In this document: in pieces, positions 751 through 53,736 of the stretch
How the letters are laid out: each line of letters starts with the position of its first letter
How positions within the stretch are numbered: the first letter of the stretch is position 1
From: Candidatus Woesearchaeota archaeon
GTDB taxonomy: Archaea > Nanobdellota > Nanobdellia > Woesearchaeales > GW2011-AR9
Reading direction: 5' to 3'
Assembly: GCA_016188115.1 (NCBI GenBank)
Contig: JACPIK010000002.1
Span: forward strand, 1,395,771 to 1,459,770
Length of the DNA stretch: 64,000 bases
Program-made: the position numbers and the translations under genes
Notes under the pieces: model-generated
The model's database searches: none
Told to the model about the DNA's origin: nothing
The model's input: the letters and a program-made list of their open reading frames with translations, nothing else

Positions 751-1166
751 TGAGACATATTCCGCGAATTTTAGTTGGTATTCAAATTGAAAATGGTCGA
801 GATTACAATACCTATACTACTCTTTTTGAAATGGTTTATCCTCCTTATGGCAACGGGTCTATGCGCGAATTTGTTGGAACTATAACCGATTTTGCTCAAA
901 ATCTAGATGAAATACTTCCCTTGCTTGCAGATGCATTTACTCAAACACCTATCTTTGCTAGAACTACAAAATATGCAGTTCTAAATGGTGGTTACTCTTT
1001 TACTGATGAGTCCTGTTCTGCTCAATCAAAAAAGCCCTATACTCCTATTCCCGCCCATTTGCTTTTCCATTTAATGAATTTATTTAAAGAAAAAAATTCT
1101 CACCTTGAACCTTCACTCTATGTTTATAATAGTCTAGCAAAATGTTATTTTCCCTGTAAAATTTAA
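751..1166 (+). CDS. hypothetical protein; start trimmed from the 561..1166 ORF to remove its overlap with the TrmB gene
   Basis: Internal ATG at 751 gives MRHIPRILVGIQIENG... No recognisable motif. Confidence 0.3.
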
Positions 1167-1724: not shown

Positions 1725-4559
1725 ATGAAAAGAAAAGAGGTTTATGCTGTAACAAAACTAGACAGAGTTCTCTTTCTCTGTTTATTACTCTTAACTCTCC
1801 TTTCTATTTCGGGTCTTGCTGTACCCATAAGGGATACAGTTTGTGAATTAGATGGTTCATTGCGTTGTTCTGCTCCTAATAGTGTCCTTGTTGGCTCAGC
1901 TGGAGCAAATCAGCCTCCTCCGTTTGTGCTAGGATATAATAATCAAGCTGTTAGTATTACCAATGCAGCATACCTCACATTTGAGAACCATCCTTTTGAA
2001 AGTCAAACGGGAAATCTTGCATTATGGTTTAAGTTAGATCCAATCATGGAACCAAGTATCACTGCTCCTGTAAAACTGTTAAAGATTTTTGAAACGGGAA
2101 ACAATCAAAATTATCTTGCTGTTCTCTATAAATCAAATGGGGAGATGGTTGTGCAATCAACTCGCAACGATAACCTCAATGTTCCAGCAAATAAACTACA
2201 ATGGAAATACATTGTCCACAAACCTCTTACTGTTGACGAATGGCATCACTTTACTTTTAGTTGGCAGCGCAACCAAGCAGGTATTCCTGATGATGTAAAA
2301 GTATTCATTGATGGTGAAGAACTGCGAAAGAGTAACTTTGTTTTTGAAGACAGTTCTGGTTTGAGAGCAACCTGGCAGCGAGGACATATTGCTAAATTGC
2401 CCTCTTTATTTCCCAATACGCGAGTTATTATTGCTAAAGGCTCTGCATCTTCAGGAAATACGCTCATAGATCAACTTAGTTTTTCACCAGAATATGTTAC
2501 TGCTGTTTGCCCTTATTGCGAAGTACTTGATGATGTTGTTCTCTATCAAAAACCTCTCTTTACAGATAAAGGGACTTATTCAACACTCCTTCCTTCCACT
2601 AAGCCACAACCCTCTGAGATCATCGAAAGCCTCTCTCTCACTGCAACCCCTGGAGAATATGAACCTACTAGTTTTGCTATTTTTACACAAAATGAACCTC
2701 TTAGAGATGTGACTGCCCAAATATCCTCTTTGAGATCTGCAGCAGGGAATTCTATTCCTATTGAGAATATCGATTTACGAGTTGTAAAAGTGTGGACTCG
2801 TGCTGGATTTGGAGCTAATTCTGCCGCAGGTTTTACATTAGGACAATCCAAACTTCAATGGGACGAATTTGGTATTAATGAAAAAGGCATTCTTGTCGCA
2901 GATATGTTGGTGTATGATGATGGTCAGGATCTAAAAGCATTAGAAAGATATAATCCCGATGGAACCTATACTGCTCCTCGCATAGCCACTCAACTTCGAA
3001 CTACTATTTCCGTTGGAGAATCCAAACAATTTTGGCTCACAATTCATGTTCCTCAAGATACTCCTGCTGGTCATTATCAAGGAGTTATCGCACTCCAAAG
3101 CCCATCTCTTGCAACTCCATTAACAATCCCTCTCTCTATAGAAGTTCTTCCATTCACTCTTGTTGAACCAAATCAAGTTCGCTCTATTTATTACCGCAAT
3201 TATCTTGGTCTAGGGGCTCTTCCTTCTGTGGGCGCTCCCGTATTTGAAAAAATTAGTGAAGAACGATATCGTGCTGAATTATCCGATATACGGGCACATG
3301 GTTTTAACGCAGTTCAGTTAAATTCGCAGCCAATGAGTGAAGAAGGGTTACGTCGTTCGCTTGAATTAGCCCGTAATGTTGGTTTTAGAATAGTTGATCA
3401 AACTGTTGCCAAAGGCGGTCGAGGCATGAGTATTGAAAGACAACTCGAACTCACACAACAGGCAGGTTTTGAGAAAATTCTTTATGCGTTTGATGAAAAA
3501 AATGAATATGCTCAAAACACCTTCGCCAACATTCTTGTTAAACTGTATGATTATCATCAAGCGGGCGCAAAAGTTATGAGTTCTTTAATTTGGCAGACTG
3601 CAGTAGAATATGAAAATCCTCAAAGTGTAATGTATGATCTAGAATATCAAAATGCCCCTTTACGAAACGTACGACCTGAAGTTGTAACCACTGGGCCTGA
3701 TTATGCAGTTATTGCTCTTCCAAATGAAGCGCATGAAGGTCGCGGCTTTGAGCGGTATTTAGATATCATCAATGGACGAGACGCACCAAGAATAAATGCA
3801 AAAGAAATGTATTATTGGCAAATAGGGATGCATAAACCATTTTACGCAAGGTATAATACGGGAGTTCTGGCATATTTCTTACGAAATTATATCTATGGTT
3901 TTAAGCCATATGCGTATTCCCATCAAGGCAGTCCCGGTTTTGGATATGGTTCTCCCTATGACACATTTGATAGTGCGTATATGTACGATGAACTAACTGA
4001 AAAAGGAGACGGGTATGTGGCTTCTCAAATGGCAGTCTATCCTTCAGCGCAAGGGCCAATCCCCACATTAGAATGGGAGGCTGTACGCGAGGGAATTGAT
4101 GATCTCAAATATTTAACAACACTCGACAATGCGTTAACTAGCTTAGAACAACAAGACCCTCGTCTCGCATCTCAACTTCGTGCAGAACTCAATACTGCGT
4201 TAGATCCATTTCGCCATCTAAACTCCTGGCGAATTATGTCGGGGGACGATTTTGACCAGTTACGCACAACCATTATCTCTCTTTTACGTCAAATTCCCGA
4301 ACCTATCTTGACTGCTATAGTTGAAGTGGATAATGTTAATGGTGTTCTAACTCAAAACAATAACAATATCATAGATAAAATAACTCTTGTTCAACAAGAT
4401 TCTCTCCAAGAAAATCAGCAAATCAATCTAGATGTTTGTTTGACATATCCTCAACTCATGCAACTTGCATCTCGTCTTGCTCAACAAGATGCACGCGGGG
4501 AAGATTTAGCCCCCATTAAACGAACCATTTTACGCACGTTTAATCTTGTCTGTTCTTAA
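1725..4559 (+). CDS. large secreted protein with an N-terminal LamG/concanavalin-A-like lectin domain
   Basis: 944 aa. N-terminal signal/TM 'VLFLCLLLLTLLSISGLA'. LamG-like block 'LALWFKLDP...WHHFTFSW...VKVFIDGEEL'. Remainder unassigned. Confidence 0.55.
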   Translation: MKRKEVYAVTKLDRVLFLCLLLLTLLSISGLAVPIRDTVCELDGSLRCSAPNSVLVGSAGANQPPPFVLGYNNQAVSITNAAYLTFENHPFESQTGNLALWFKLDPIMEPSITAPVKLLKIFETGNNQNYLAVLYKSNGEMVVQSTRNDNLNVPANKLQWKYIVHKPLTVDEWHHFTFSWQRNQAGIPDDVKVFIDGEELRKSNFVFEDSSGLRATWQRGHIAKLPSLFPNTRVIIAKGSASSGNTLIDQLSFSPEYVTAVCPYCEVLDDVVLYQKPLFTDKGTYSTLLPSTKPQPSEIIESLSLTATPGEYEPTSFAIFTQNEPLRDVTAQISSLRSAAGNSIPIENIDLRVVKVWTRAGFGANSAAGFTLGQSKLQWDEFGINEKGILVADMLVYDDGQDLKALERYNPDGTYTAPRIATQLRTTISVGESKQFWLTIHVPQDTPAGHYQGVIALQSPSLATPLTIPLSIEVLPFTLVEPNQVRSIYYRNYLGLGALPSVGAPVFEKISEERYRAELSDIRAHGFNAVQLNSQPMSEEGLRRSLELARNVGFRIVDQTVAKGGRGMSIERQLELTQQAGFEKILYAFDEKNEYAQNTFANILVKLYDYHQAGAKVMSSLIWQTAVEYENPQSVMYDLEYQNAPLRNVRPEVVTTGPDYAVIALPNEAHEGRGFERYLDIINGRDAPRINAKEMYYWQIGMHKPFYARYNTGVLAYFLRNYIYGFKPYAYSHQGSPGFGYGSPYDTFDSAYMYDELTEKGDGYVASQMAVYPSAQGPIPTLEWEAVREGIDDLKYLTTLDNALTSLEQQDPRLASQLRAELNTALDPFRHLNSWRIMSGDDFDQLRTTIISLLRQIPEPILTAIVEVDNVNGVLTQNNNNIIDKITLVQQDSLQENQQINLDVCLTYPQLMQLASRLAQQDARGEDLAPIKRTILRTFNLVCS

Positions 4560-23389: not shown

Positions 23390-24457
23390 ATGTCTCTCTT
23401 CAAAGATATGCTCAAATCGGGCGAATCAGTGTTTCGCGACACTGTTCCACTCAATTTTGATTTTCAACCTAAAGTGGTCTTTGCCAGAGAAAATGAGCAA
23501 CAGCGTTTTGCCATCGCCATTCGACCTTTATTTGAAAATCATAACGGCCGTAATGTCTTTGTTTATGGGCCACCTGGCGTAGGGAAAACCACTGCGTGTA
23601 AACATGTTCTAAGAGAATTAGAAGAGACCACAGATGATATCATCCCTATGTATATCAACTGTTGGAAAGAAAATTCTACCTACAAGATTTTCTTTAAGTT
23701 ATGTGAAGATCTAGGCTATAAATTCATTCAGAGCAAAAAGACTCCTGAACTGTGGGCAATGATCATGCAACGCTTGAACAAAAAGAGTGTTGTGTTTATT
23801 TTTGATGAAATTGACAAACTTGAAGATACAGACTTTCTCTATACTATCCTTGAAGACATTTATCGCAAATCCATTTTTCTCATCACAAATTATCGTGATT
23901 CCTACAGTGAGATGGATGAACGCATTAGAAGCCGCCTCAATCCTGAGTTTCTTCATTTTCCTCCCTACACAGAAACGGAAATTGGTAAAATTCTAGAACA
24001 ACGTAAGGAATATGCCTTCGTACCTGGATGTTGGGACGATGATGCATTCAAAGAGATTGTCGAGCATTGCTCTGAAGACAAAGATGTGCGTGTTGGTCTC
24101 TATCTCATGCGTGAAACTGGAAACATTGCTGAAGAGAAAAGTTCGCGTAAAATTACCTGTCTTCATGTTGCTGCAGCCATTGCCAAAGCCCAAGAATTTC
24201 AAATCAAATCAAAAGAATCTCTTGAAGAGGATCTCCAAGTCATTCTCGAAATCATTAAAGACAACAATGGTAAAAAAATTGGTGAAATTTTCACATCATA
24301 TCAACAGATGGGCGGAGAACTCAGTTACAAAAGCTTTCAACGTCGAATTTTACGCTTGCAGGATGGGCGATATATCAATACAGAAAAAGTAACTGGAACC
24401 GAAGGCAATACCACTATTGTTCATTTTGCCTCACACAAAAAATTAACTGATTTCTAA
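23390..24457 (+). CDS. cdc6: Orc1/Cdc6 replication initiator
   Basis: AAA+ Walker A 'VYGPPGVGKTT', Walker B 'IFDEIDKL', and a C-terminal winged-helix region. Confidence 0.85.
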   Translation: MSLFKDMLKSGESVFRDTVPLNFDFQPKVVFARENEQQRFAIAIRPLFENHNGRNVFVYGPPGVGKTTACKHVLRELEETTDDIIPMYINCWKENSTYKIFFKLCEDLGYKFIQSKKTPELWAMIMQRLNKKSVVFIFDEIDKLEDTDFLYTILEDIYRKSIFLITNYRDSYSEMDERIRSRLNPEFLHFPPYTETEIGKILEQRKEYAFVPGCWDDDAFKEIVEHCSEDKDVRVGLYLMRETGNIAEEKSSRKITCLHVAAAIAKAQEFQIKSKESLEEDLQVILEIIKDNNGKKIGEIFTSYQQMGGELSYKSFQRRILRLQDGRYINTEKVTGTEGNTTIVHFASHKKLTDF

Positions 24458-24473
24458 ATCCCTAAATCAAACC

Positions 24474-24929
24474 ATGGCCGCCGAACCAAAAATCAGTGCA
24501 CATGAATCATCCGCAGGGATTATACTCTATCGCCTGCTTAACAAAAAACGAGAATACCTTCTTCTACAATATCATTATACTACTTCTTATTGGGGGCTGT
24601 GCAAAGGACGTATTGAACAAAATGAAGATCCTGAACAGACAGCACTGCGCGAAGCAGCAGAAGAAACAAGTTACACCAAGATCGAACTCCACTCTCGCTT
24701 TCGAGAAAAAACCTCTTACTTCTTTCTTCGGGAGGGGAAGTACATCTCTAAAAGCGTACTCTGGTTTTGCGGCAAGGTGTTGGATACTCACGATGGCAAA
24801 GTGTCATTTGAACACACCAAGCTCATCTGGCTACCATACGAAAAAGCAATTGAGAAATTAACCTATGACAATGATAAAAGAATGGTGCAAGAAGCAGAAG
24901 AGTTTTTGAAAAATTTTGAAAAGAAATGA
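24474..24929 (+). CDS. NUDIX hydrolase
   Basis: Nudix box 'GLCKGRIEQNEDPEQTALREAAEETS'. Confidence 0.75.
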   Translation: MAAEPKISAHESSAGIILYRLLNKKREYLLLQYHYTTSYWGLCKGRIEQNEDPEQTALREAAEETSYTKIELHSRFREKTSYFFLREGKYISKSVLWFCGKVLDTHDGKVSFEHTKLIWLPYEKAIEKLTYDNDKRMVQEAEEFLKNFEKK

Positions 24930-24946
24930 ACAACAGTTCTAAATTC

Positions 24947-25573
24947 TTATCCTTTCTGTCCCAACCCAATATCCACCACAATAATCTTGGCATTATACTT
25001 CTCCAACCCAGGTTTAGTGTCATGAAACGTAAACACAGTGTCTACATCACAGATTTTATTTGCGACATCTCCGGTATCTGGATGAAGTCCTGAGGGTACA
25101 TCTAGTGATATTTTCTCCCCAGGTATAGAATTAAAAAAATCAATGCCCCAACTTACAGGTTCACGTATATCTCCCTCAATACCAATTCCAAGCATTGCAT
25201 CAACTAAGATTAATTGGTGTTTTGGTTGAAAATGAATCTTCTCTAAATCTTCTTTATTTTTAATAGGAACAATTGTTGCTTTTTGCCAAATTGCATCGTA
25301 TTCTTTGAGTGCTTCAGGAGTTAACTTTATTTTCTCACCAAAAAACAAAACCACTACGGGCACAGTCTCAAGTAAATAACGCGCAAGAGCAAATCCGTCT
25401 CCCCCATTGTTTCCTTGACCTGCAAAAATAATCACTCGTTTTCCTTCAACTTCATGGTGAATAGTTAATAGGTGTGCAACTTCGCGCCCCACATTATCCA
25501 TAAGATCTTTCGCAAAGACTCCTTGCTTCTGCGCTTCTCGTTCAAGCTTGCGTAATTGAGCAACTGTGATCAT
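24947..25573 (-). CDS. NAD(P)H-hydrate epimerase (YjeF N-terminal domain)
   Basis: 'FAGQGNNGGDGFALARYL' is the YjeF_N signature. Confidence 0.7.
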   Translation of the reverse strand: MITVAQLRKLEREAQKQGVFAKDLMDNVGREVAHLLTIHHEVEGKRVIIFAGQGNNGGDGFALARYLLETVPVVVLFFGEKIKLTPEALKEYDAIWQKATIVPIKNKEDLEKIHFQPKHQLILVDAMLGIGIEGDIREPVSWGIDFFNSIPGEKISLDVPSGLHPDTGDVANKICDVDTVFTFHDTKPGLEKYNAKIIVVDIGLGQKG

Positions 25574-26847: not shown

Positions 26848-28155
26848 TCAATCTAAGTTATCGATGTTTTTAGCTAGTGCATTTAATCCTCTTAACAGAT
26901 CATCATAAGTGTAAAAAGATACTTCCCCCAGATTCCTTGATTTAAACTCTCTTAGTTTCTCCTGTTCATAATCTTTTTCACAACCCATAATCAGAACACC
27001 TTTAACTCGGTTTATATCTTCTACTTTTAGATTACCTATTCCTTTTAGAACGGCTGATTTTTCATCACTTACTAAGTGAATCCAATTGTTCACTTGATCT
27101 AGTGCGTGTTGCATTTCTCTCTTTGTTTCACCATTTTTCTTCATTATTTGGAATGAAGGTTTTTCAATTTCTATAAGAAGAAGATCTTTCCTGTTTGTTA
27201 CTATACAAAAGTCAGTTTTATACTTACTCAAGATAGGCATTTTGTTATAAATCATCTCTGGCGAAAAAAGACTTAGTATTAATGTATTCCTTTCAATAAA
27301 TTTTTGAACTTCTTCTTCTCCAGGGTTACTTTCTATTAATAGTTTAAATGCATCAATTATTTTAATTATTGAAGCTTTTGTATAATAATTCTGTGCAGAT
27401 ATAATTTTTTGACTGCCATTTTTGACTTTTCCTAATAAAGCGTGAAAGTTTTCACGTATGTATTTGAGACTAAATGAAGAATTCCTACACTTACAAGAGA
27501 AAATATCTGGTAAATCCTCAAACCAGATATCTCCTTTTTCCTCAAATACTTTATCTCTCTCTAAACCTACATAAATCTTAAGTTCTGCTTTGCAGTTTTT
27601 ACAACCAAGTTGAATTGCTATTTTCTTTGAGATGGCGGGGTCAGCTTTTAGAGCAGCAATCCTCTCTTTACTTAAGGGGGGAACTTTTTGATAATGAAAA
27701 GTAACTGACCCGATTGGGATTTTTTCACCATCTTGTTCTAAAAAAATATTAAGTGTCGTCGGTTCGGATAAAATTATATCCTTCTCGAAGTCGCAGAGGA
27801 AAAGCGACCAACCCGTAGTTAAATCTCGAACTTTAATTGAAAAAGTATTTCCCCTATCAACGTTTAAATTTCTTTTATTGATTCCTTGTTCGTGATATTT
27901 TAAAGACATTTTTTGAATTAGAAGTCCGTTCTGATCCAAAAATTCTAGATTTGTATCTTTTAAATTTTTAACGTCATAAATCGCGAATACTAATTTTTTA
28001 AATTCTTTAAGATTTATAGGAAAGATGAGACAAAAACAGTTAGAGTTAATACCTATTAAATTGTGGTACCAACTTCTATAATCTCCCTCTCTAATCGACT
28101 CTCCTTTCTCACACAAACCTAAGAAAGCTACTCTGGGAATAATATTACTGCTCAT
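26848..28155 (-). CDS. AT-rich hypothetical protein with a C-terminal PD-(D/E)xK-like nuclease signature (possible DUF4263 / Shedu-like)
   Basis: C-terminal 'KTDFCIVTNRKDLLLIEIEKP...QHALDQVNNW' reads as a D...E-x-K-type core. Internal CxxC...CxC 'CKNCKAEL...CKCRN'. Composition is distinctly more AT-rich than the flanking uppS and mutL. Confidence 0.3.
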   Translation of the reverse strand: MSSNIIPRVAFLGLCEKGESIREGDYRSWYHNLIGINSNCFCLIFPINLKEFKKLVFAIYDVKNLKDTNLEFLDQNGLLIQKMSLKYHEQGINKRNLNVDRGNTFSIKVRDLTTGWSLFLCDFEKDIILSEPTTLNIFLEQDGEKIPIGSVTFHYQKVPPLSKERIAALKADPAISKKIAIQLGCKNCKAELKIYVGLERDKVFEEKGDIWFEDLPDIFSCKCRNSSFSLKYIRENFHALLGKVKNGSQKIISAQNYYTKASIIKIIDAFKLLIESNPGEEEVQKFIERNTLILSLFSPEMIYNKMPILSKYKTDFCIVTNRKDLLLIEIEKPSFQIMKKNGETKREMQHALDQVNNWIHLVSDEKSAVLKGIGNLKVEDINRVKGVLIMGCEKDYEQEKLREFKSRNLGEVSFYTYDDLLRGLNALAKNIDNLD

Positions 28156-28238: not shown

Positions 28239-30047
28239 ATGCCTACAATTCATGTTCTTAGCGAAGACGTCATCAATAAAATTGCAGCAGGCGAAGTTAT
28301 TGAACGGCCTGCATCCGTAGTCAAAGAGTTAGTAGAAAACTCCATCGATGCTGGTGCAACCAAAATCACGGTTGACATTGAAAATGTAGGCAGAGATCTC
28401 ATCTGCATCACTGACAATGGGTCAGGTATGAATTCAGAAGATGCAAAACTCTCCATCATTCGACATGCAACGAGTAAGTTAAGTACAGCAGACGATCTTT
28501 TCAACATTCAATCGCTTGGATTTCGTGGAGAAGCTCTCGCTTCTATTGCTGCTGTAAGTACTCTTTCCATTTCGACAAAACAAAAGAAAAACATCGAAGG
28601 CTACATGATCACCATTCGTGGTGGTACGATTCAAAAAGAAGGTTCATGTGCTCACGAGCAAGGCACAACTATTGAAGTAAAATCACTTTTTTTCAATACA
28701 CCGGCGCGTCTCAAATTTCTCAAAACCGATGCCGTGGAATTGCGCCATATCATTGATGTAGTAACCCAATATGCATTGATTCATCCCGAAATCTCTTTCA
28801 CTCTTACTCACAATAACTCCTCTCTTATCGAGGCACCTAAAGTCGAAGATCTACGCCAACGCATTGCGTTTCTCTATGGTGTATCAATAGCCAAAGATTT
28901 AGTACCTATTCAAACCAAGGGTGATGGCTTTACTCTAAACGGTTTTTTAGGCACACCAATGCAATCACGTAATGACAAAGCGCAACAGGCTTTGTATGTT
29001 AACAAACGCTGGATTAAGAATACTGATTTACGTGATGCTGTGTATGAAGGATATCATTCGATGTTGTTTCATGGTAAACATCCGATCTTTGTGTTAGACA
29101 TCGAACTCGATGCTCAACGTATTGATGTTAATATCCATCCCCAGAAATCAGAGATCAAAATCGAACAGCGTGATGAGATTTGCAGTGCGATTACGCAAGC
29201 GGTTAAACACGCACTTTCAACGAATAATCTTATTCCTGATGTGACGCCACGGTTTGAAAATGTTAGTGGATTTTCTAAACCAAGCAAGTACTCATTTGAA
29301 AAAGCAACGCAACAAGTATTGCCGATTGAGAGAGAAGAAAGAACACGATCAATTCCACAAGTAAAAGAAAGTGCCGCAGTCTATCAACAAGACTCAGACT
29401 CTTCCTCTGCTCCTAGTTCCATTAGCAATTTTCCATTTACCTCATCTCCTGCTGAGTTTCATTCTTCTCTTCCTACAATGCGTTTGTTAGGTCAAATTCA
29501 CAAAACATTCTTTGTTGCCGAAAGTGATGGTGGAGCATATTTTATCGATCAACATGCGGCACACGAACGAGTACTCTACGAGGAATTGATGGGCGATCTC
29601 ACTTTGGGTCAAATTGCACCGCAAGTATTGCTTCAAGCAGCAGTAATCGATCTCGCCCCACGGGATGTTCCCATTGTGACACAGCATCTTTCTTTCTTAC
29701 ATCAGCTTGGTTTTACACTCGAATCATTTGGAACCAATAGTTTTTCACTCAAAACGCTTCCGAGTATCTTTGGTCGACAGCAACCTAAAGAACTCTTTGC
29801 TGACATGTTGGGCATTCTGCAAGAAGAAGGGAAAAACACGTTGGAGAAACTACGTGAAACTATTCTCACTCGTATGGCTTGTCGTGCTGCCGTGATGGCG
29901 GGTGATCCAGTCACCATCCCCGAAATGGAATTGATCCTACATCAACTTTCTCAAACCCAACATCCCTATACCTGTCCCCATGGCCGTCCAACGGTGATTA
30001 GAGTGAGCGCAGAAGAGCTCGAGAAGAAGTTTAAAAGGAAAGGGTAA
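28239..30047 (+). CDS. mutL: DNA mismatch repair protein MutL
   Basis: GHKL ATPase N-terminus 'KIAAGEVIERPASVVKELVENSIDAGAT', 'GFRGEALASI', and a C-terminal dimerisation/endonuclease region. Confidence 0.85.
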   Translation: MPTIHVLSEDVINKIAAGEVIERPASVVKELVENSIDAGATKITVDIENVGRDLICITDNGSGMNSEDAKLSIIRHATSKLSTADDLFNIQSLGFRGEALASIAAVSTLSISTKQKKNIEGYMITIRGGTIQKEGSCAHEQGTTIEVKSLFFNTPARLKFLKTDAVELRHIIDVVTQYALIHPEISFTLTHNNSSLIEAPKVEDLRQRIAFLYGVSIAKDLVPIQTKGDGFTLNGFLGTPMQSRNDKAQQALYVNKRWIKNTDLRDAVYEGYHSMLFHGKHPIFVLDIELDAQRIDVNIHPQKSEIKIEQRDEICSAITQAVKHALSTNNLIPDVTPRFENVSGFSKPSKYSFEKATQQVLPIEREERTRSIPQVKESAAVYQQDSDSSSAPSSISNFPFTSSPAEFHSSLPTMRLLGQIHKTFFVAESDGGAYFIDQHAAHERVLYEELMGDLTLGQIAPQVLLQAAVIDLAPRDVPIVTQHLSFLHQLGFTLESFGTNSFSLKTLPSIFGRQQPKELFADMLGILQEEGKNTLEKLRETILTRMACRAAVMAGDPVTIPEMELILHQLSQTQHPYTCPHGRPTVIRVSAEELEKKFKRKG

Positions 30048-40365: not shown

Positions 40366-40646
40366 TCGAGTAGATCATGCACACTCACAACGGCGCTGCG
40401 CACTTTATCTCCTTTATTACAATAAGGGCAACTAGGAGTATAAGATTTAAACTTGTAGTGGCAACGGTCGCAATTATAGCTAATTTTGCCTTCTGCTTGT
40501 TTTTGGGCACTGCGTTCTTGAGTTTTTTTGTGGCAACCATAACACACATATTTCTTTTCTTTACCTGGAAGAAGTAATGCTGATGCTGGTTCAACCATAG
40601 TGCCACACATAGAACATTCAATTGGAACTCGTAAGATACCTGTCAT
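40362..40646 (-). CDS. zinc-ribbon protein
   Basis: 'CSMCG...CYGCH...CDRCH...CPYC'. Confidence 0.4.
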   Translation of the reverse strand: MTGILRVPIECSMCGTMVEPASALLLPGKEKKYVCYGCHKKTQERSAQKQAEGKISYNCDRCHYKFKSYTPSCPYCNKGDKVRSAVVSVHDLLE

Positions 40647-40743
40647 AAAATTTTGGCACCAACACTACTATAAAAATCTTGTGTATAAATTTATTTTATG
40701 CTCGCTAAACTTTATATACGCGGGGTCTTTTTTACCCTATACC

Positions 40744-41997
40744 GTGGATACAAAATCTATATTAAAGAACATACAACCTACTACCTCACAGCGTAAACTC
40801 TTCTATGAAACTGCATCCATTGTTTGTGATAAAATAAACGCCGTTAGTCCCTCTGCTCATGCCAGATTAGGGGGAAGTGGTGCGAAAGATACTTGGCTTG
40901 CAACCAGCGCAGATATTGACATCTTTGTAGCGTTTCCCTACGAACAATATCATGAAAAATCAGCAGTTCTCTCAGACTTAGTAGAAAAGTCCCTTCATAA
41001 ATCATTTCCTGATATCCCTATCCAACGTCTCCATGGTAGTCGTGACTATTTTCAATTTCAATATCACCATTACCTGATTGAAGTTGTTCCCATTATAGAA
41101 ATCACTAAAGCATCTCAAGCCTGTAACATCACAGATGTATCGCCCCTGCATGTAGCATGGGTTAAAGATCAGGGTAAAAATCTTGTTGATGATATTCGTC
41201 TTGCCAAACAGTTCTGCAAAGCGCAACGAGTCTATGGCGCAGAATCTTATATTGGGGGTGTAAGTGGTTATGTTGTTGAGATCCTCGTCATTCATTATGG
41301 TTCATTCGAAAAATTTGTTCAAGCTGTCACCAAATGGAAAGAGGGACAAGTAATTGATCCCACTCAATTCTACGCCAAGGGTATGGCGCGATTTAATCTA
41401 AACTCTTCCAAAATGCGTTGTCCTCTCATTGTAATTGATCCAGTAGATAAGAATCGTAATGCTGCCGCAGCGCTCAACATGTCACGTTGGCAGCGTTTAA
41501 AAGTGGCAGCAACTAAATATCTCAAAAATCCAGATACTTCATTCTTTACTCTATTTCCTTTCTCAGTTGATTCTCTCAAAATCAAAGCAGGAAAAAATAA
41601 ACTGCTTTGTTTCCATGTGATTCCGTTAGAAGGTAAAATTGATGTAGTTGGCGCAAAAATGATGAAAACGCATGAATATATTGCGCAACATCTTGAACCA
41701 TTTGGGATCGTTGAAACCGATTGGGAATGGTCTAATGGGAAGAATGCATTATTTTATTTTATTCTCAAAAAAAATAAACAACCTGCAACTCAACGTATCC
41801 AAGGTCCACCTACACACATGAAAGAAGCAGCTACCGCATTTTGCGCTAAACATAAAGAGAATGTAGAAGAAGATGGCAAACTTGTTGCTCACATTGCAGT
41901 TCGTTATCCTCTTCTTGAAGATCAAATCAAAGTACTTCTCGAAAGTGCATATGTTGCTTCGCGTATTAACGGCGTTGAAGATTTGAAGATAGTCTAG
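40744..41997 (+). CDS. cca: class I (archaeal) CCA-adding tRNA nucleotidyltransferase
   Basis: 'LGGSGAKDTWLATSADIDIFVAF' is the pol-beta NT motif. GTG start chosen at 40744, since the ATG at 40600 would overlap the convergent zinc-ribbon gene. Confidence 0.75.
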   Translation: MDTKSILKNIQPTTSQRKLFYETASIVCDKINAVSPSAHARLGGSGAKDTWLATSADIDIFVAFPYEQYHEKSAVLSDLVEKSLHKSFPDIPIQRLHGSRDYFQFQYHHYLIEVVPIIEITKASQACNITDVSPLHVAWVKDQGKNLVDDIRLAKQFCKAQRVYGAESYIGGVSGYVVEILVIHYGSFEKFVQAVTKWKEGQVIDPTQFYAKGMARFNLNSSKMRCPLIVIDPVDKNRNAAAALNMSRWQRLKVAATKYLKNPDTSFFTLFPFSVDSLKIKAGKNKLLCFHVIPLEGKIDVVGAKMMKTHEYIAQHLEPFGIVETDWEWSNGKNALFYFILKKNKQPATQRIQGPPTHMKEAATAFCAKHKENVEEDGKLVAHIAVRYPLLEDQIKVLLESAYVASRINGVEDLKIV

Positions 41998-43828: not shown

Positions 43829-45574
43829 CTACTCCCTTAACTCTGCCACATTTTGCATCGATACCATCCGAGCAAACGCGCCTTTCTTTTTTAATAACTC
43901 TGCATACGTTCCTTTCTCAACAATCCTGCCAGCATCCATAACGATAATCATATCGGCATGTCTAATAGTGGATAATCGGTGGGCAATGATAATCGTTGTC
44001 TTCTTTCCAGCAATAGAAAAGATCGATTTCTGAATGGCTCTCTCCGACTCCGAATCAAGTGAGGATGTTGCCTCATCAAAAATATAAATCTCTGGATTTT
44101 TCAACAATGCGCGAGCAATCGACACGCGTTGTTTTTGACCACCAGACAAACGAATCCCTTTCTCTCCAACAACAGTATCATAACCTTTGGGAAATCCTGC
44201 AATAAATTCATGAGCATGAGCTTTCTTAGCAGCTGCAATAACCTCTTTAAGCGACGCAGTAGGTTTAGCAAATGCAATATTTTCTTGAATGGTTTTATTA
44301 AAAATTTCTACATTTTGTGAAACTATCGCGATATTTTTTTTATACTCTTCAATAGAAAGATTTCGCAAATCTGTATCATCAATTTTAATTGCGCCCTTTG
44401 TCACATCATAATGTCGTAATAACAATCGCACTAAGGTAGTCTTACCTGATCCTGATCGACCGACTAATGCGACAACCTGCTTAGGTTTAATCATTAAAGA
44501 AATATCATGAAGAACTTGCTCTCCTTCAGCATACGAGAAAGATACTTTATCAAAATGAACTTGACCTTCCACACGTGTCACTTGTTGTGCTTTCGTGACA
44601 TTTGCAATCGCCGGTTTTTGTTCATAAATTCCTACTAATCTATCAATAGATTCGACTGCATCTTCTAAATAATTATACAATCGACCAATACGAAATGTGG
44701 AGAGAAATGCTCTCTCTGTAAGAGTATATACTAACACTACTGTTCCTGTACTAATGCTTCCCTTTAAAACCATCCACATGGCAACTCCTAAAGTTGCCCC
44801 GCGACCGAAAGTAATAATCATATCCCTTCCAAAAAGATATCTCTGTGAATGGACTTGACGTTTAATCCCATTATCAAAATAGCTATCTAATAATTTGTTA
44901 AATGTTGAGAGCTGACGATGTTCTTGTCCATAATCTTTCACCGTGGTAATATTAAACAGACTTTCTCCTAATTCTCCCGTCGCATCCTCAAAGTCACGGT
45001 GATACTGCTTTCGAAACGGTTGTACTTTTTGCGACGCATAAATCGTAATAAAAATTAAAATGGGTGTAAACACCATAAAAATTAATCCAATTTCCCACTT
45101 AACATAAAAAAGCAATAGTACCGTTAAAAACATCTGCATGAGTGTAGGAATAAACTCATTAAACGTAAACCACACTAATTCCGAGAGTTTCTGGCTTCCT
45201 TTGACAATTTTTGATACCTGCGAGCCCGTATTATATTGTTCATGAAACCCAAGATGTAGTTCCAATAGCTTTTTCTTAATACGTTTAAGAATCAGTGTTT
45301 CATATGTTAATCCCCATTCCCACTCTGCATTCTTGGCAAAATAATCAATGACTCCTAAAATAATATAAGAGGTCACTATACCACTAAAAAATAAGATCAA
45401 TCTGCTTGTATCTGTAGCATCTGTTGTAAGATGATCCACAATTTCTCGAAGAAAAATAACCGGAACAAATTTTACTGACTCATAGAAAAATGCAATACTA
45501 AACCCTTTGAGAATTCCTGTCTTGATTTCCGGAACAATCGTAAAGATCTTTTCTAAAACATGTCTCTCACGCAT
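43829..45574 (-). CDS. ABC exporter, fused permease and ATPase (MsbA-like)
   Basis: Six TM segments at the N-terminus. Walker A 'GRSGSGKTT', signature 'LSGGQKQRVSIARALL', Walker B 'IYIFDEATS'. Confidence 0.85.
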   Translation of the reverse strand: MRERHVLEKIFTIVPEIKTGILKGFSIAFFYESVKFVPVIFLREIVDHLTTDATDTSRLILFFSGIVTSYIILGVIDYFAKNAEWEWGLTYETLILKRIKKKLLELHLGFHEQYNTGSQVSKIVKGSQKLSELVWFTFNEFIPTLMQMFLTVLLLFYVKWEIGLIFMVFTPILIFITIYASQKVQPFRKQYHRDFEDATGELGESLFNITTVKDYGQEHRQLSTFNKLLDSYFDNGIKRQVHSQRYLFGRDMIITFGRGATLGVAMWMVLKGSISTGTVVLVYTLTERAFLSTFRIGRLYNYLEDAVESIDRLVGIYEQKPAIANVTKAQQVTRVEGQVHFDKVSFSYAEGEQVLHDISLMIKPKQVVALVGRSGSGKTTLVRLLLRHYDVTKGAIKIDDTDLRNLSIEEYKKNIAIVSQNVEIFNKTIQENIAFAKPTASLKEVIAAAKKAHAHEFIAGFPKGYDTVVGEKGIRLSGGQKQRVSIARALLKNPEIYIFDEATSSLDSESERAIQKSIFSIAGKKTTIIIAHRLSTIRHADMIIVMDAGRIVEKGTYAELLKKKGAFARMVSMQNVAELRE

Positions 45575-45642
45575 ACAAGAAAGATTTCCTTTTAATTTAT
45601 ATAATTATAGAAAGACATAATCTATTGCTCATGGAAGAAAAG

Positions 45643-45799
45643 CGCCCCCGCGCGGATTTGAACCGCGGTTCCAAGCTTTTTGTATCAAGAAACTCTAAAC
45701 ATGAGTTTTCTTACACCGCAAGCTCGTGTCCTATTTGCTTCAACTTTTGATCAAACTTTTAGCTTGCCTAAAAGGTTGTCCAAGCTAGACTACGAGGGC
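45643..45799 (-). tRNA. tRNA-Arg (anticodon GCG) with two introns: one in the D-loop and one canonical 37/38 intron
   Basis: Minus-strand read. Acceptor GCCCTCG pairs with CGGGGGC. D-stem GTCT/GGAC. Anticodon arm CGAGC-TTGCGG|A-GCTTG. T-arm CGCGG-TTCAAAT-CCGCG, discriminator G. Removing about 45 nt (plus 45735-45779) and 38 nt (plus 45678-45715) gives a ~74-nt cloverleaf. The 37/38 intron contains a helix AAGAAAC/GTTTCTT. Confidence 0.7.
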
Positions 45800-45865
45800 A
45801 ATAGGTAAGCAAAACCTGCCTTTCTTTAAAAAGGTTATGAGAAGATATAGTTTGTCCAAAAAGAT

Positions 45866-46645
45866 TTACTTTCGAATCTCGGCCCCACCGCTTGGCACAA
45901 AGCTCATAATCTCATCTAAATCTGTCAGCCCTAATTTATTCTTAATTTTTTTTCCAGTATCACTTTTCTTCTCTTTACCTGAAACCAAAACTACATACTT
46001 GTCTGTTTTTGCGGCAACTGCTTGCACCGGACCGCCAACAACCTGTCCCTCTACATTACCTATCGCATACTCCATTTTAGGATGGTAAAATTCACGCTTT
46101 CCATAGATCATAAAGCTTCCTTTACTCATATATTCTCCGGGTTTTGCCTCTTTACTTACCTGATCAGGTTTAACACTAAACACCTCTGCAGCACCTAATC
46201 CTAATTTCCACGCTTTCGAGAAAACGGCAACCGCTTGCGCTGTCTCTTGAATTGTCTTCTCGCCTGCCTGTTGTCCATTCTTAACTACAAAAAATGGAGA
46301 TCCTGGTGCTTCCGTATGAAGTACTATGTCTTCTTTATCAAGATGTTTCTTAATGATAATCTCATTAGTGGTTGCATCCTTACCACCAATACACAAAAAA
46401 TTCTCTGAAGAAAAAAACCAATGAAATTTCTCATACCATTCTTTCTTGCGCACAACTTTGGATTGTTTTTTCTCTTCTTCTGCAAAGAATTTCGCTTCTT
46501 CAGTTCGTAATTTCTCCAATTTTTTCTGCGTATCTAGGATGATTGCTTGTGCGCCTAAAATCTTCTTCTTTGATTTTTTCGCGAGATCAAAATAAATTCC
46601 TGCATTTTCATCTACAGATTTCTGCAGGTCGAATTCCATTTGCAT
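45866..46645 (-). CDS. stand-alone NFACT-R (DUF814) domain protein (Rqc2/FbpA C-terminal-like)
   Basis: 'FSSENFLCIGGKDATTNEIIIKKHLDKEDIVLHTEAPGSPFFVV' is the DUF814 signature. No NFACT-N domain is encoded upstream. Confidence 0.55.
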   Translation of the reverse strand: MQMEFDLQKSVDENAGIYFDLAKKSKKKILGAQAIILDTQKKLEKLRTEEAKFFAEEEKKQSKVVRKKEWYEKFHWFFSSENFLCIGGKDATTNEIIIKKHLDKEDIVLHTEAPGSPFFVVKNGQQAGEKTIQETAQAVAVFSKAWKLGLGAAEVFSVKPDQVSKEAKPGEYMSKGSFMIYGKREFYHPKMEYAIGNVEGQVVGGPVQAVAAKTDKYVVLVSGKEKKSDTGKKIKNKLGLTDLDEIMSFVPSGGAEIRK

Positions 46646-46735: not shown

Positions 46736-47857
46736 CTATTTGCCTGCTGCTTCTATTTTGTCAAATCCTAATGCCACAAAACCCAATAGATTCCATGCGC
46801 CTTCTTTACCATTGCGTTCCATCCAAGGAGCATACCCTGCATTAATACCTAAAGGCACTATTCCACCTACTTTAGCTCGTAGATTAATTTCTAACCCTAA
46901 TTGAACCGGCATCTCAAGTGCGGCTGCTCCTTCTACTGCGGGTCTTTGGGTTGTTAATCCCCAAACTCCTGCGCCAACACGGTAATGAGGATGAAGAAGT
47001 ATGCTTGCCGCTGCACGTGCATCTAAAAACAAAGGAGTTCGAACTTCATTAAGATTTGTTCCTGGAAATGGTATTTGTGGGCTGACAAATGAACCTCCTC
47101 TCCAAGCATTATATTCATCTGCATGCCATTCGCCTCCTAATCGTACATCTCCCGTGAGATTAAGTCTTTGTCCAGTTCCAAGTTGGGCATGAAATAAACT
47201 CCCTACTGTATGTTGATAATCTGAAAGTTCTGGTGAATGTGATCGATATCCCGGACGAAATTCTTCTTCAACAAGAAGTCGTAATTCAAATCCCTGACGA
47301 GTGCCAAAAATAAGATCTGCATCCATTTCTCTAAATTTAAGATCCAGTTGCGGTCGTACCAAAAGATGATTGCTTGGAAGCTCTCGCGAGGTATCCGAAG
47401 TTTCATCATACATCTTATACGCGCCAAACACACTCGCGCGCGCATCAAATAATCCTGTTGTTAGCGTGACAAAAGTAGTCATACCTGCTTCATGAGCAGT
47501 ACTTTCTTCCTCTTTTTTTCTAGAACCGTGCTCATAATCCCGATAATTACCCCATGATATGTAATTCATACGCACATCTAATCCTGTGCCAATCACACCT
47601 CGGTGATGAAATTGCGCAAAACCACTTAACGAATCTGCCTGAATTAAAAGATCCCATGGACTTTGTTCCAATTCTGTGTAATAATTAAGTCGTACAACCG
47701 GCGTAAATGTTCCCTCACCATTTAGCGGCGTATCTGCCCCTAATACTGCCATAAAATGATAAGGTTGTTTTGGTTCATACGTTTGCGCAGACGCGGTGTT
47801 CAAAGTCACAGTAGCCGTAGTAGTGAACAGTAATGCAGTTGGAAGAGAATAATTCAT
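46736..47857 (-). CDS. secreted beta-rich protein of unknown function, higher GC
   Basis: Signal peptide 'LLFTTTATVTLNTASA'. Gly/aromatic-rich strands. No TM segment. Confidence 0.45.
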   Translation of the reverse strand: MNYSLPTALLFTTTATVTLNTASAQTYEPKQPYHFMAVLGADTPLNGEGTFTPVVRLNYYTELEQSPWDLLIQADSLSGFAQFHHRGVIGTGLDVRMNYISWGNYRDYEHGSRKKEEESTAHEAGMTTFVTLTTGLFDARASVFGAYKMYDETSDTSRELPSNHLLVRPQLDLKFREMDADLIFGTRQGFELRLLVEEEFRPGYRSHSPELSDYQHTVGSLFHAQLGTGQRLNLTGDVRLGGEWHADEYNAWRGGSFVSPQIPFPGTNLNEVRTPLFLDARAAASILLHPHYRVGAGVWGLTTQRPAVEGAAALEMPVQLGLEINLRAKVGGIVPLGINAGYAPWMERNGKEGAWNLLGFVALGFDKIEAAGK

Positions 47858-52881: not shown

Positions 52882-53302
52882 TATGTGTTATCTCTTTAAT
52901 TCTATTTGCTGGTATAAATATTTCTCCGCCCTGTCCAACAAACACAAGGAAATCTTTTTCAAGCTTCTTAAGATTATGTGCTGGTAGATTAACTATTTTA
53001 TTGCTAGCTTTATCCAAATAAGTGACAGAAAGTTCTTGTCTTGAAGGATGTCTGTGTATCCGATCGTAAATAATCTCTCCTTGTTTAATCTCATCAAGGG
53101 GAGTAACATCTTTAAAGATAAAACTTGAAAGAGTTAGCATTAATACTCCTACTCCTAAACTAACCAATGGGTTTGCTAAATACCCTATGTTTCCCACTCC
53201 ATCCCACAGTCCTGTCCAAAAAAAAACGACACCCATCACTCCGAAAAGGAACCAAAAGTACTTCTTCACTTTCTCAGTATGTAAGACCATCATGCCCTCC
53301 AA
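52844..53302 (-). CDS. membrane protein, paralog 1 (two TM + conserved C-terminal domain)
   Basis: Collinear with the next gene: 'FIPANRIKEITHNGQTYW' versus 'FIPIHRVKKIFQNDKIYW'. Confidence 0.45.
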   Translation of the reverse strand: MEGMMVLHTEKVKKYFWFLFGVMGVVFFWTGLWDGVGNIGYLANPLVSLGVGVLMLTLSSFIFKDVTPLDEIKQGEIIYDRIHRHPSRQELSVTYLDKASNKIVNLPAHNLKKLEKDFLVFVGQGGEIFIPANRIKEITHNGQTYWKAPQSA

Positions 53303-53736
53303 TAGATCTTATCATTTTGAAAGATTTTTTTAACACGATGAATAGGAATAAAAAATTCCTGTTTAGTAGGAAGCACTACAATTAAAGCGGTTTCGTCCAA
53401 CTGACTAATCGATACTGCCGGCACTTCTACTTCTTTTTTTTGAACTTTATCATAATATTTTATTTTAAATTGATTTTTTTGAGGATGAGCCATAATCCCT
53501 TCAAATCGTGTTACCAATGCTTTCTCCATACCACCAAGCGGGTCAAACTCTTTGAACACAAGACCGGAAAATGTTAACATTGTCAGTCCAATAAACAAGA
53601 ACACAAAGGGGTCACCAATCACATCACTTACTACAGGAATAACATAAATTCCTTCCCATACGCCTTTCCATGCTAAGATAATCGCTGCTGCTGAGTACAT
53701 AGACCAGAGAAAATGACGATCTTCTTCACGTAACAT
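53290..53736 (-). CDS. membrane protein, paralog 2
   Basis: Shares the architecture and C-terminal motif with paralog 1. Overlaps it by 13 bp. Confidence 0.45.
   Translation of the reverse strand: MLREEDRHFLWSMYSAAAIILAWKGVWEGIYVIPVVSDVIGDPFVFLFIGLTMLTFSGLVFKEFDPLGGMEKALVTRFEGIMAHPQKNQFKIKYYDKVQKKEVEVPAVSISQLDETALIVVLPTKQEFFIPIHRVKKIFQNDKIYWRA

Follow-up and report, generated by a model that had tools for sequence, protein, structure and literature searches.

Which tRNA, if any, is encoded by a 157-nt segment of the minus strand (45799..45643) in a 64-kb stretch of DNA from Candidatus Woesearchaeota archaeon (the whole stretch analysed, called here the window), and by how many introns is it interrupted? 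An earlier note on this DNA had proposed a tRNA-Arg(GCG) gene with one intron in the D-loop and another at 37/38. Judging from the sequence and its orthologs, the locus is very probably a functional tRNA-Arg(GCG) gene of this DPANN archaeon, composed of three exons and two BHB introns.

The tRNA locus lies in a 291-nt gap between a minus-strand ABC transporter gene (43829-45574) and an NFACT-R/RqcH-like ORF (45866-46645). Analysis of the gene content reveals that the window encodes aCPSF1, an archaeal RqcH-type protein, Rad3/XPD, a proteasome subunit, eS/uS ribosomal proteins, and Cdc6/Orc1, and that the homologs of the RqcH-like ORF are named Woesearchaeota or Nanoarchaeota. An assembly artefact is unlikely, because an independent Logan metagenome assembly (L003) shows no difference anywhere in the tRNA locus. 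Read 5' to 3' on the minus strand, the first half of the gene is GCCCTCG-TA-GTCT-AGCTTGG[45 nt]ATA-GGAC-A-CGAGC-TTGCGG[38 nt], and the part following the 38-nt intron is A-GCTTG-GAAC-CGCGG-TTCAAAT-CCGCG-CGGGGGC-G. The individual segments are as follows:

45780..45799, minus strand: exon 1 (precursor nt 1-20), with the acceptor 5' strand GCCCUCG, U8 and A9, the D-stem 5' strand GUCU, and the D-loop AGCUUGG through G18 G19, kept in orthologs
45735..45779, minus strand: intron 1, 45 nt, in the D-loop between G19 and A20 (our own Sprinzl assignment)
45716..45734, minus strand: exon 2 (nt 66-84), with AUA (A20, U20a, A21), the D-stem 3' strand GGAC, A26, the anticodon stem 5' strand CGAGC, and UUGCGG (U32 to G37), which includes the anticodon GCG
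45678..45715, minus strand: intron 2, 38 nt, at the canonical position 37/38, with a relaxed BHB
45643..45677, minus strand: exon 3 (nt 123-157), with A38, the anticodon stem 3' strand GCUUG, the variable loop GAAC, the T-arm CGCGG-UUCAAAU-CCGCG, the acceptor 3' strand CGGGGGC, and the discriminator G73

When both introns are taken out, exons of 20, 19 and 35 nt form a 74-nt cloverleaf with a 7-bp acceptor stem (including a single U5·G68 pair), a 4-bp D-stem, 5-bp anticodon and T stems, and anticodon and T loops of 7 nt each. Standard pairs occupy 21/21 stem positions, and U8, A14, G18 G19, A21, U33, G53, T54 T55 C56, A58 and C61 are all present in the spliced sequence GCCCUCGUAGUCUAGCUUGGAUAGGAC...GGUUCAAAUCC, while CCA is not encoded. 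The elements listed in the earlier note (a 7-bp acceptor with one U-G pair, the T-arm CGCGG/TTCAAAT/CCGCG, the D-stem GTCT/GGAC and the loop TTGCGGA) were all found in place, and its intron lengths of about 45 and 38 nt turned out to be exact. ARAGORN, given the spliced sequence, reports a tRNA-Arg(gcg) of 75 bases with a flawless cloverleaf and every stem paired. tRNA-Arg is marked by C35 with G36 or U36, plus A20 in the D-loop; the window tRNA possesses A20 (the first nucleotide of exon 2), C35 and G36, which we take to be its Arg identity elements. The three exons are colinear inside the 157 nt, so the gene is neither split nor permuted. The inserts, at 45 and 38 nt, are too short for a group I ribozyme core (P1-P9, typically >200 nt), and we found no Rfam intron match at the locus.

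The expectation that standard finders would miss or mis-call the gene was borne out. ARAGORN with default settings detects no tRNA anywhere in the 64-kb window, Rfam at gathering thresholds reports nothing at the locus, and RF00005 does not match the unspliced window gene even at E<=10. Rfam matches at E<=10 around the locus, to snoRNA, mascRNA and tmRNA models, are at chance level and reflect the T-arm; they were discarded. With introns allowed, ARAGORN places a tRNA at 45642-45799 on the minus strand, thereby giving the same ends and independent support for the gene boundaries, but calls it a tRNA-Cys(ACA) whose cloverleaf is poor and whose only intron has 86 nt. This call is the one point in favor of a single-intron tRNA-Cys(ACA). 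The model is malformed, as its D-stem has 3 bp, its anticodon stem is mismatched, and its intron, at 30/31, is devoid of a BHB; to our knowledge ACA is not used as an anticodon in archaea, where A34 is avoided; and the orthologs described below, which display contiguous Arg(GCG) anticodon arms, contradict it. We therefore consider a tRNA-Cys(ACA) exceedingly improbable. Annotation by default ARAGORN or Rfam would make the genome appear to lack a tRNA for its most used Arg codons.

To locate the splice sites of the two-intron tRNA-Arg(GCG), we scanned all candidate splice-site pairs in the 157-nt precursor for the BHB geometry, i.e. two 3-nt bulges, each cut after the second nucleotide, with a 4-bp helix H between them and flanking helices h and h' (cuts are marked here by arrows). 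The best motif in the precursor, and the sole strict BHB found in this exhaustive scan, is that of intron 1 (H=4, h=4, h'=4, cut 20↓66; h+h'=8, the next best reaching 6). Its strict hBHBh' comprises h formed by nt 11-14/67-70, H formed by nt 15-18/60-63, and h' formed by nt 22-25/56-59, with GG↓A and AA↓A as the bulges. The 20↓66 cut takes out exactly 45 nt and restores the D-loop AGCUUGG↓AUA. An equally good motif at this junction arose in 0.039% of 200,000 intron shuffles (p = 3.9e-4). The BHB conformer of intron 1 lies 1.8 kcal/mol above the local MFE, and the precursor as a whole folds with z = -4.9 relative to dinucleotide shuffles. Thus, the D-loop intron is non-canonical in position, as had been suggested, while its motif is a strict hBHBh'. 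No C/D-box motifs were seen by eye in the two window introns.

Folding of the second junction gave a relaxed BHB, in agreement with the earlier proposal for the 37/38 intron. Here the outer helix h is the 5-bp anticodon stem, the bulges are GG↓U and AA↓A, and the central helix H is formed by the pairs U32-A, U33-A and G34-C with C35·A mismatched (3/4). The h' helix has 2 pairs (G·U and U-A), then 6 more past a 1-nt bulge (a G, followed by AAGAAA/UUUCUU), and then CUC/GAG. The internal helix AAGAAAC/GTTTCTT described previously does have 7 bp, but one A is bulged (AAGAAA-[A]-C vs G-UUUCUU), since the sequence reads AAGAAAAC. Taken alone, the relaxed motif has a shuffle p of about 0.036 and is weak evidence on its own. 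Relative to the local MFE, the BHB-like conformer of intron 2 costs 7.3 kcal/mol with the outer and central helices enforced, and 10.5 kcal/mol with the two h' pairs forced as well; for the entire precursor, the double-BHB conformer has -41.2 kcal/mol vs -55.7 for the MFE. The 7.3 kcal/mol gap falls inside the range of the family (1.9-9.7 kcal/mol, strict-BHB relatives included), and nearest-neighbour folding favours a conformer with 7 bp and a 3x3 internal loop at the anticodon arm in every family member, strict-BHB ones too. Because all members exhibit the same preference, we ascribe the gap to the energy model or to protein-assisted folding, and do not count it against the locus. The 3/4 central helix at 37/38 recurs in three orthologs (L030, L033, L034), two of which (L033 and L034) also have the ACAAAA↓A design of intron 2.

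The anticodon assignment depends on the register in which intron 2 is removed, as the run of A residues at its 3' end permits eight registers that keep a 7-nt loop, e.g. with UUGAAAA (Phe, GAA) or UUAAAAA (AAA). ARAGORN, after removal of intron 1 alone, indeed picked a tRNA-Phe(aaa), and therefore the assignment needed outside evidence. The BHB geometry is found in the 37/38 register alone, the only one that has the anticodon stem as its outer helix (H=3, h=5, h'=2; h=0 in all others). Besides, TTGCGGA is read in all intronless orthologs, and position 20 is A, the Arg identity element. An archaeal tRNA-Phe is expected to have G37 and A73, which speaks against the Phe register. Splicing of intron 2 in another register is thus hardly credible, and both the Phe(AAA) call and the one-intron Cys(ACA) model were rejected on the basis of structure and orthologs.

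For the two-intron tRNA-Arg(GCG) model, the comparison with related sequences is decisive. In one syntenic relative (L009), which encodes an RqcH-like protein 82% identical to that of the window, the tRNA directly adjoins the RqcH-like gene in inverted orientation (970..856); its exons are those of the window gene, the same site in the D-loop holds a 41-nt insert of unrelated sequence, the anticodon arm CGAGC-TTGCGGA-GCTTG is uninterrupted, and CCA is encoded. In the other (L010), the neighbouring RqcH-like protein is 67% identical, and the tRNA, located ~400 nt downstream of that gene, lacks the D-loop intron and contains a single 22-nt strict-BHB intron at 37/38. The last ~18 nt of the L010 tRNA (AATCCTCGCGGGGGCGCT) are repeated ~95 nt downstream (4186-4281 and 4358-4376), with a Bro-N gene further downstream; the repeat looks like an att-type duplicate from an element integrated into the tRNA 3' end.

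A search of genome contigs with the 3' exon 21-mer GGTTCAAATCCGCGCGGGGGC retrieved five Spirochaete loci alone and no relative of the window. The exon 2 19-mer ATAGGACACGAGCTTGCGG was matched identically in 59 metagenomic loci, 46 of which are archaeal-type orthologs that could be parsed end to end; these 46 and the window represent 33 distinct precursors. Nine loci (L019, L020, L024, L026, L039, L046, L059, L063, L066) share the identical 19-nt D-stem/anticodon-arm segment with the archaeal tRNA-Arg(GCG), but are intronless and differ in their 5' half (...GTCGTTCAATGG...), whose appearance is bacterial or CPR-like. The orthologs carry 0-3 introns at three fixed sites, 19/20, 37/38 and 59/60, and 7/8 of the possible combinations were seen:

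no introns: 9 distinct precursors
37/38 intron alone: 3 distinct precursors
37/38 and T-loop introns: 8 distinct precursors
D-loop intron alone: 2 distinct precursors
D-loop and T-loop introns: 1 distinct precursor
D-loop and 37/38 introns: 4 distinct precursors, the window among them
all three introns: 6 distinct precursors

The three sites themselves are used as follows:

D-loop site, GG↓...↓AUA: 14 loci including the window, introns of 17-87 nt, H=4/4 in 13/14 and h=4 in 14/14
37/38 site: 25 loci including the window, introns of 13-48 nt, H=4/4 in 20/25
T-loop site, A59↓...↓U60: 19 loci, introns of 14-90 nt

The T-loop intron, which the window gene lacks at 59/60, is found in L011, L017, L018, L022, L029-L035, L042, L048, L051, L052, L055, L064, L068 and L069. 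Both sequence and length of the introns vary across the orthologs, while the mature sequences are near-identical and covarying. An identical mature sequence can even be combined with different introns, e.g. L047 and L050 have none and L060 has a 26-nt intron in the D-loop, and L022 and L028 likewise differ in their intron sets. Among the 28 distinct spliced sequences, 588/588 pair cells are standard and 8 pairs exhibit compensatory double changes (0/500 shuffles match this). The acceptor and T stems, however, owe part of their full pairing to the method, since complementarity was used to find the 3' ends, and the search pattern itself dictated exon 2. ARAGORN with default settings calls tRNA-Arg(gcg) in 9/9 distinct intronless orthologs scanned and in none of the intron-bearing ones. 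In four intronless orthologs, which differ from the mature sequence of the window at about 5 to 11 mostly compensated stem positions, Rfam RF00005 scores 56.6-60.2 bits against a threshold of 29. The two-intron tRNA-Arg(GCG) put forward in the earlier note is thus upheld by the ARAGORN call on the spliced sequence and by the BHB geometry, i.e. by structure, and more strongly by the orthologs that lack one or both introns and share the mature sequence.

Is the gene used? Signals expected for expression are found on both sides of it, and an enzyme that would complete the product is encoded nearby:

45825..45832, minus strand: TATA-like box TTTTTAAA, 26-33 nt upstream of tRNA position 1 (about -32)
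45635..45642, minus strand: pyrimidine/T-rich tract CTTTTCTT, directly 3' of the discriminator
40600..41997, plus strand: gene for a CCA-adding enzyme (tRNA nucleotidyltransferase; Pfam PF09249, E = 1.4e-36)

The TTTTTAAA box is probably an archaeal promoter; TTTWAAW begins between -40 and -24 in 23/36 distinct orthologous loci, nearly all of them intron-bearing. Similarly, the CTTTTCTT tract is a probable archaeal oligo-T terminator, and T-runs follow the discriminator in most orthologs. CGU and CGC, which in archaea are read by a G34 tRNA, account for 338/630 Arg codons (54%) in the 42 annotated window ORFs, and no intronless copy of the anticodon arm was found within the 64-kb window.

These observations bear on the possibility that the locus is a decaying pseudogene, i.e. 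a tRNA-Arg broken by two insertions, no longer processed, and covered by another copy in the genome. Such a reading could draw on the imperfect BHB of intron 2 and on the fact that the inspected part makes up 4% of the ~1.47-Mb genome. We nevertheless deem it very unlikely: 21/21 stem pairs are preserved, no invariant tRNA nucleotide is missing, both insertions are located exactly at the BHB-intron sites of dozens of relatives, the strict BHB at intron 1 is unlikely to arise by chance, the promoter box is retained, and CGY codons dominate among Arg codons. One gene per anticodon is normal in small archaeal genomes (PMC4307357), which also counts against a pseudogene.

The functional tRNA-Arg(GCG) gene would then be processed in the following way. 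Transcription would start downstream of the TTTTTAAA box at about -32 and end at the T-rich tract, and in the 157-nt precursor the 45-nt D-loop intron (G19/A20) would fold into the strict hBHBh', and the 38-nt intron at 37/38 into the relaxed motif, whose central helix contains one C·A mismatch. Each 3-nt bulge would be cut after its second nucleotide by EndA, the splicing endonuclease of archaea, and an RtcB-type ligase would join the exons. After end trimming, the 3' CCA would be added by the CCA-adding enzyme encoded 4 kb away, an activity presumably needed in trans, since the tRNA gene has no encoded CCA. The 74-nt product would read CGU and CGC, the Arg codons that the window uses most. 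The two introns had been described as a processing puzzle, but there is not much of one, as their BHB motifs occupy separate nucleotides (11-70 and 74-128) and hence no order of intron removal is forced. Seven family scans returned no match to EndA or RtcB among the 62 window ORFs. The window also contains a 148-aa ORF (53290-53736, minus strand) with an MJ1316 RNA cyclic-end recognition domain (PF04457, E = 2.9e-7), which could act on the 2',3'-cyclic phosphate ends left by RNA cleavage.

Two-intron tRNA genes are of a kind already known, and the window gene adds a well-documented DPANN case that leaves current understanding unchanged. It is well documented that tRNA genes of archaea can contain as many as three BHB introns, located at 37/38 and at non-canonical positions, 20/21 and 59/60 among them (PMC4090602, PMC8450103). 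The multi-intron tRNA genes of Thermoproteales, other Crenarchaeota and Thaumarchaeota likewise are colinear and have short protein-spliced BHB introns at 37/38 and non-canonical sites; their hosts, however, belong to the TACK group, whereas the window gene comes from a DPANN archaeon (Woesearchaeota) and its D-loop site is at G19/A20 by our own numbering. The same architecture, one intron in the D-loop and one at 37/38, is found in the pre-tRNA-Glu(UUC) of Methanopyrus kandleri (PMC5829648). There, the strict BHB belongs to the canonical intron and a relaxed HBh' to that of the D-loop, whereas in the window gene the situation is reversed, and the isotype and lineage are different. Group I introns, which interrupt tRNA genes in Patescibacteria and some archaea (PMC13011429, PMC6125680), also hide tRNA genes from standard finders, as the window introns do, but they are self-splicing ribozymes of hundreds of nucleotides, in contrast to the 45- and 38-nt inserts with BHB geometry found here.

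Within DPANN, lineages including Woesearchaeota are reported to possess an alpha4 EndA carrying an L3 insert and to have markedly more disrupted tRNA genes, and tRNA genes have been predicted in a Woesearchaeota genome (PMC5829648). ARMAN-2, a DPANN archaeon with disrupted tRNA genes, has an epsilon2 EndA (PMC3239211, PMC5829648). The window gene belongs to the same superphylum and follows the same reported trend of many intron-bearing and multi-intron tRNA genes. In the DPANN literature that we compared (PMC3239211, PMC5829648) we found no description of a tRNA-Arg(GCG) family with 0-3 introns at three fixed sites. The 46 metagenomic orthologs and the two syntenic relatives offer a compact set of sequences in which to study how introns are gained and lost, and which substrates DPANN splicing endonucleases accept. 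As to the suggestion that multi-intron tRNAs could mark a lineage, the lineage here is DPANN (Woesearchaeota) and not the classical Thermoproteales; at a fine scale the marker is poor, because relatives with 67-82% identity in the neighbouring protein do not have the same introns.

Some of the long introns share further features. The D-loop intron of L028 and the T-loop intron of L017 have in common a hairpin, UCAAGUGGGAU-loop-AUCCCACGACA, a similarity that rests on two 11-mers seen by eye, and the D-loop intron of L030 contains a covarying version of it, GCGGG-UUUUCA-GCCCAC. BLAST among all introns revealed nothing significant in the way of similarity between positions. The common hairpin may be a mobile or protein-binding element. 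Tentatively, the window gene might be viewed as one momentary state in a rapid turnover of introns among Woesearchaeota-like DPANN archaea, with three hot spots, unrelated introns at the same site, a shared hairpin hinting at mobile BHB introns, and a C35·A motif cut by an alpha4-type EndA of broadened specificity; we hold this to be possible, but somewhat doubtful. If it were true, the tRNA-Arg(GCG) family would be a natural system for the gain, movement and loss of archaeal tRNA introns.

Several other genes of the window deserve mention. The 373-aa ORF upstream of the RqcH-like gene (46736-47857, minus strand) has no sequence match in NCBIfam, Pfam or PDB, and the RqcH-like ORF itself (45866-46645, minus strand) is a 259-aa C-terminal ORF with a match to residues 381-644 of archaeal RqcH; these two ORFs seem to divide the RqcH/NFACT function between them. 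The short RqcH form is the norm in >100 Woesearchaeota/Nanoarchaeota homologs. With lowered thresholds, ARAGORN reported a tRNA-Ser(tga) at 24877-24956 on the plus strand, which is located inside a NUDIX ORF (24474-24929), is absent at default settings, and is most likely a false positive. A Cdc6/Orc1 gene at 23390-24457 (plus strand) may mark a nearby replication origin. The gene at 28239-30047 (plus strand) encodes a full-length MutL (TIGR00585, E = 9e-169), unusual for a small DPANN genome. Finally, a 435-aa ORF (26848-28155, minus strand) contains the Shedu SduA C-terminal nuclease domain (PF14082, E = 6.5e-19), and this DPANN gene is a candidate for a role in anti-virus defence.
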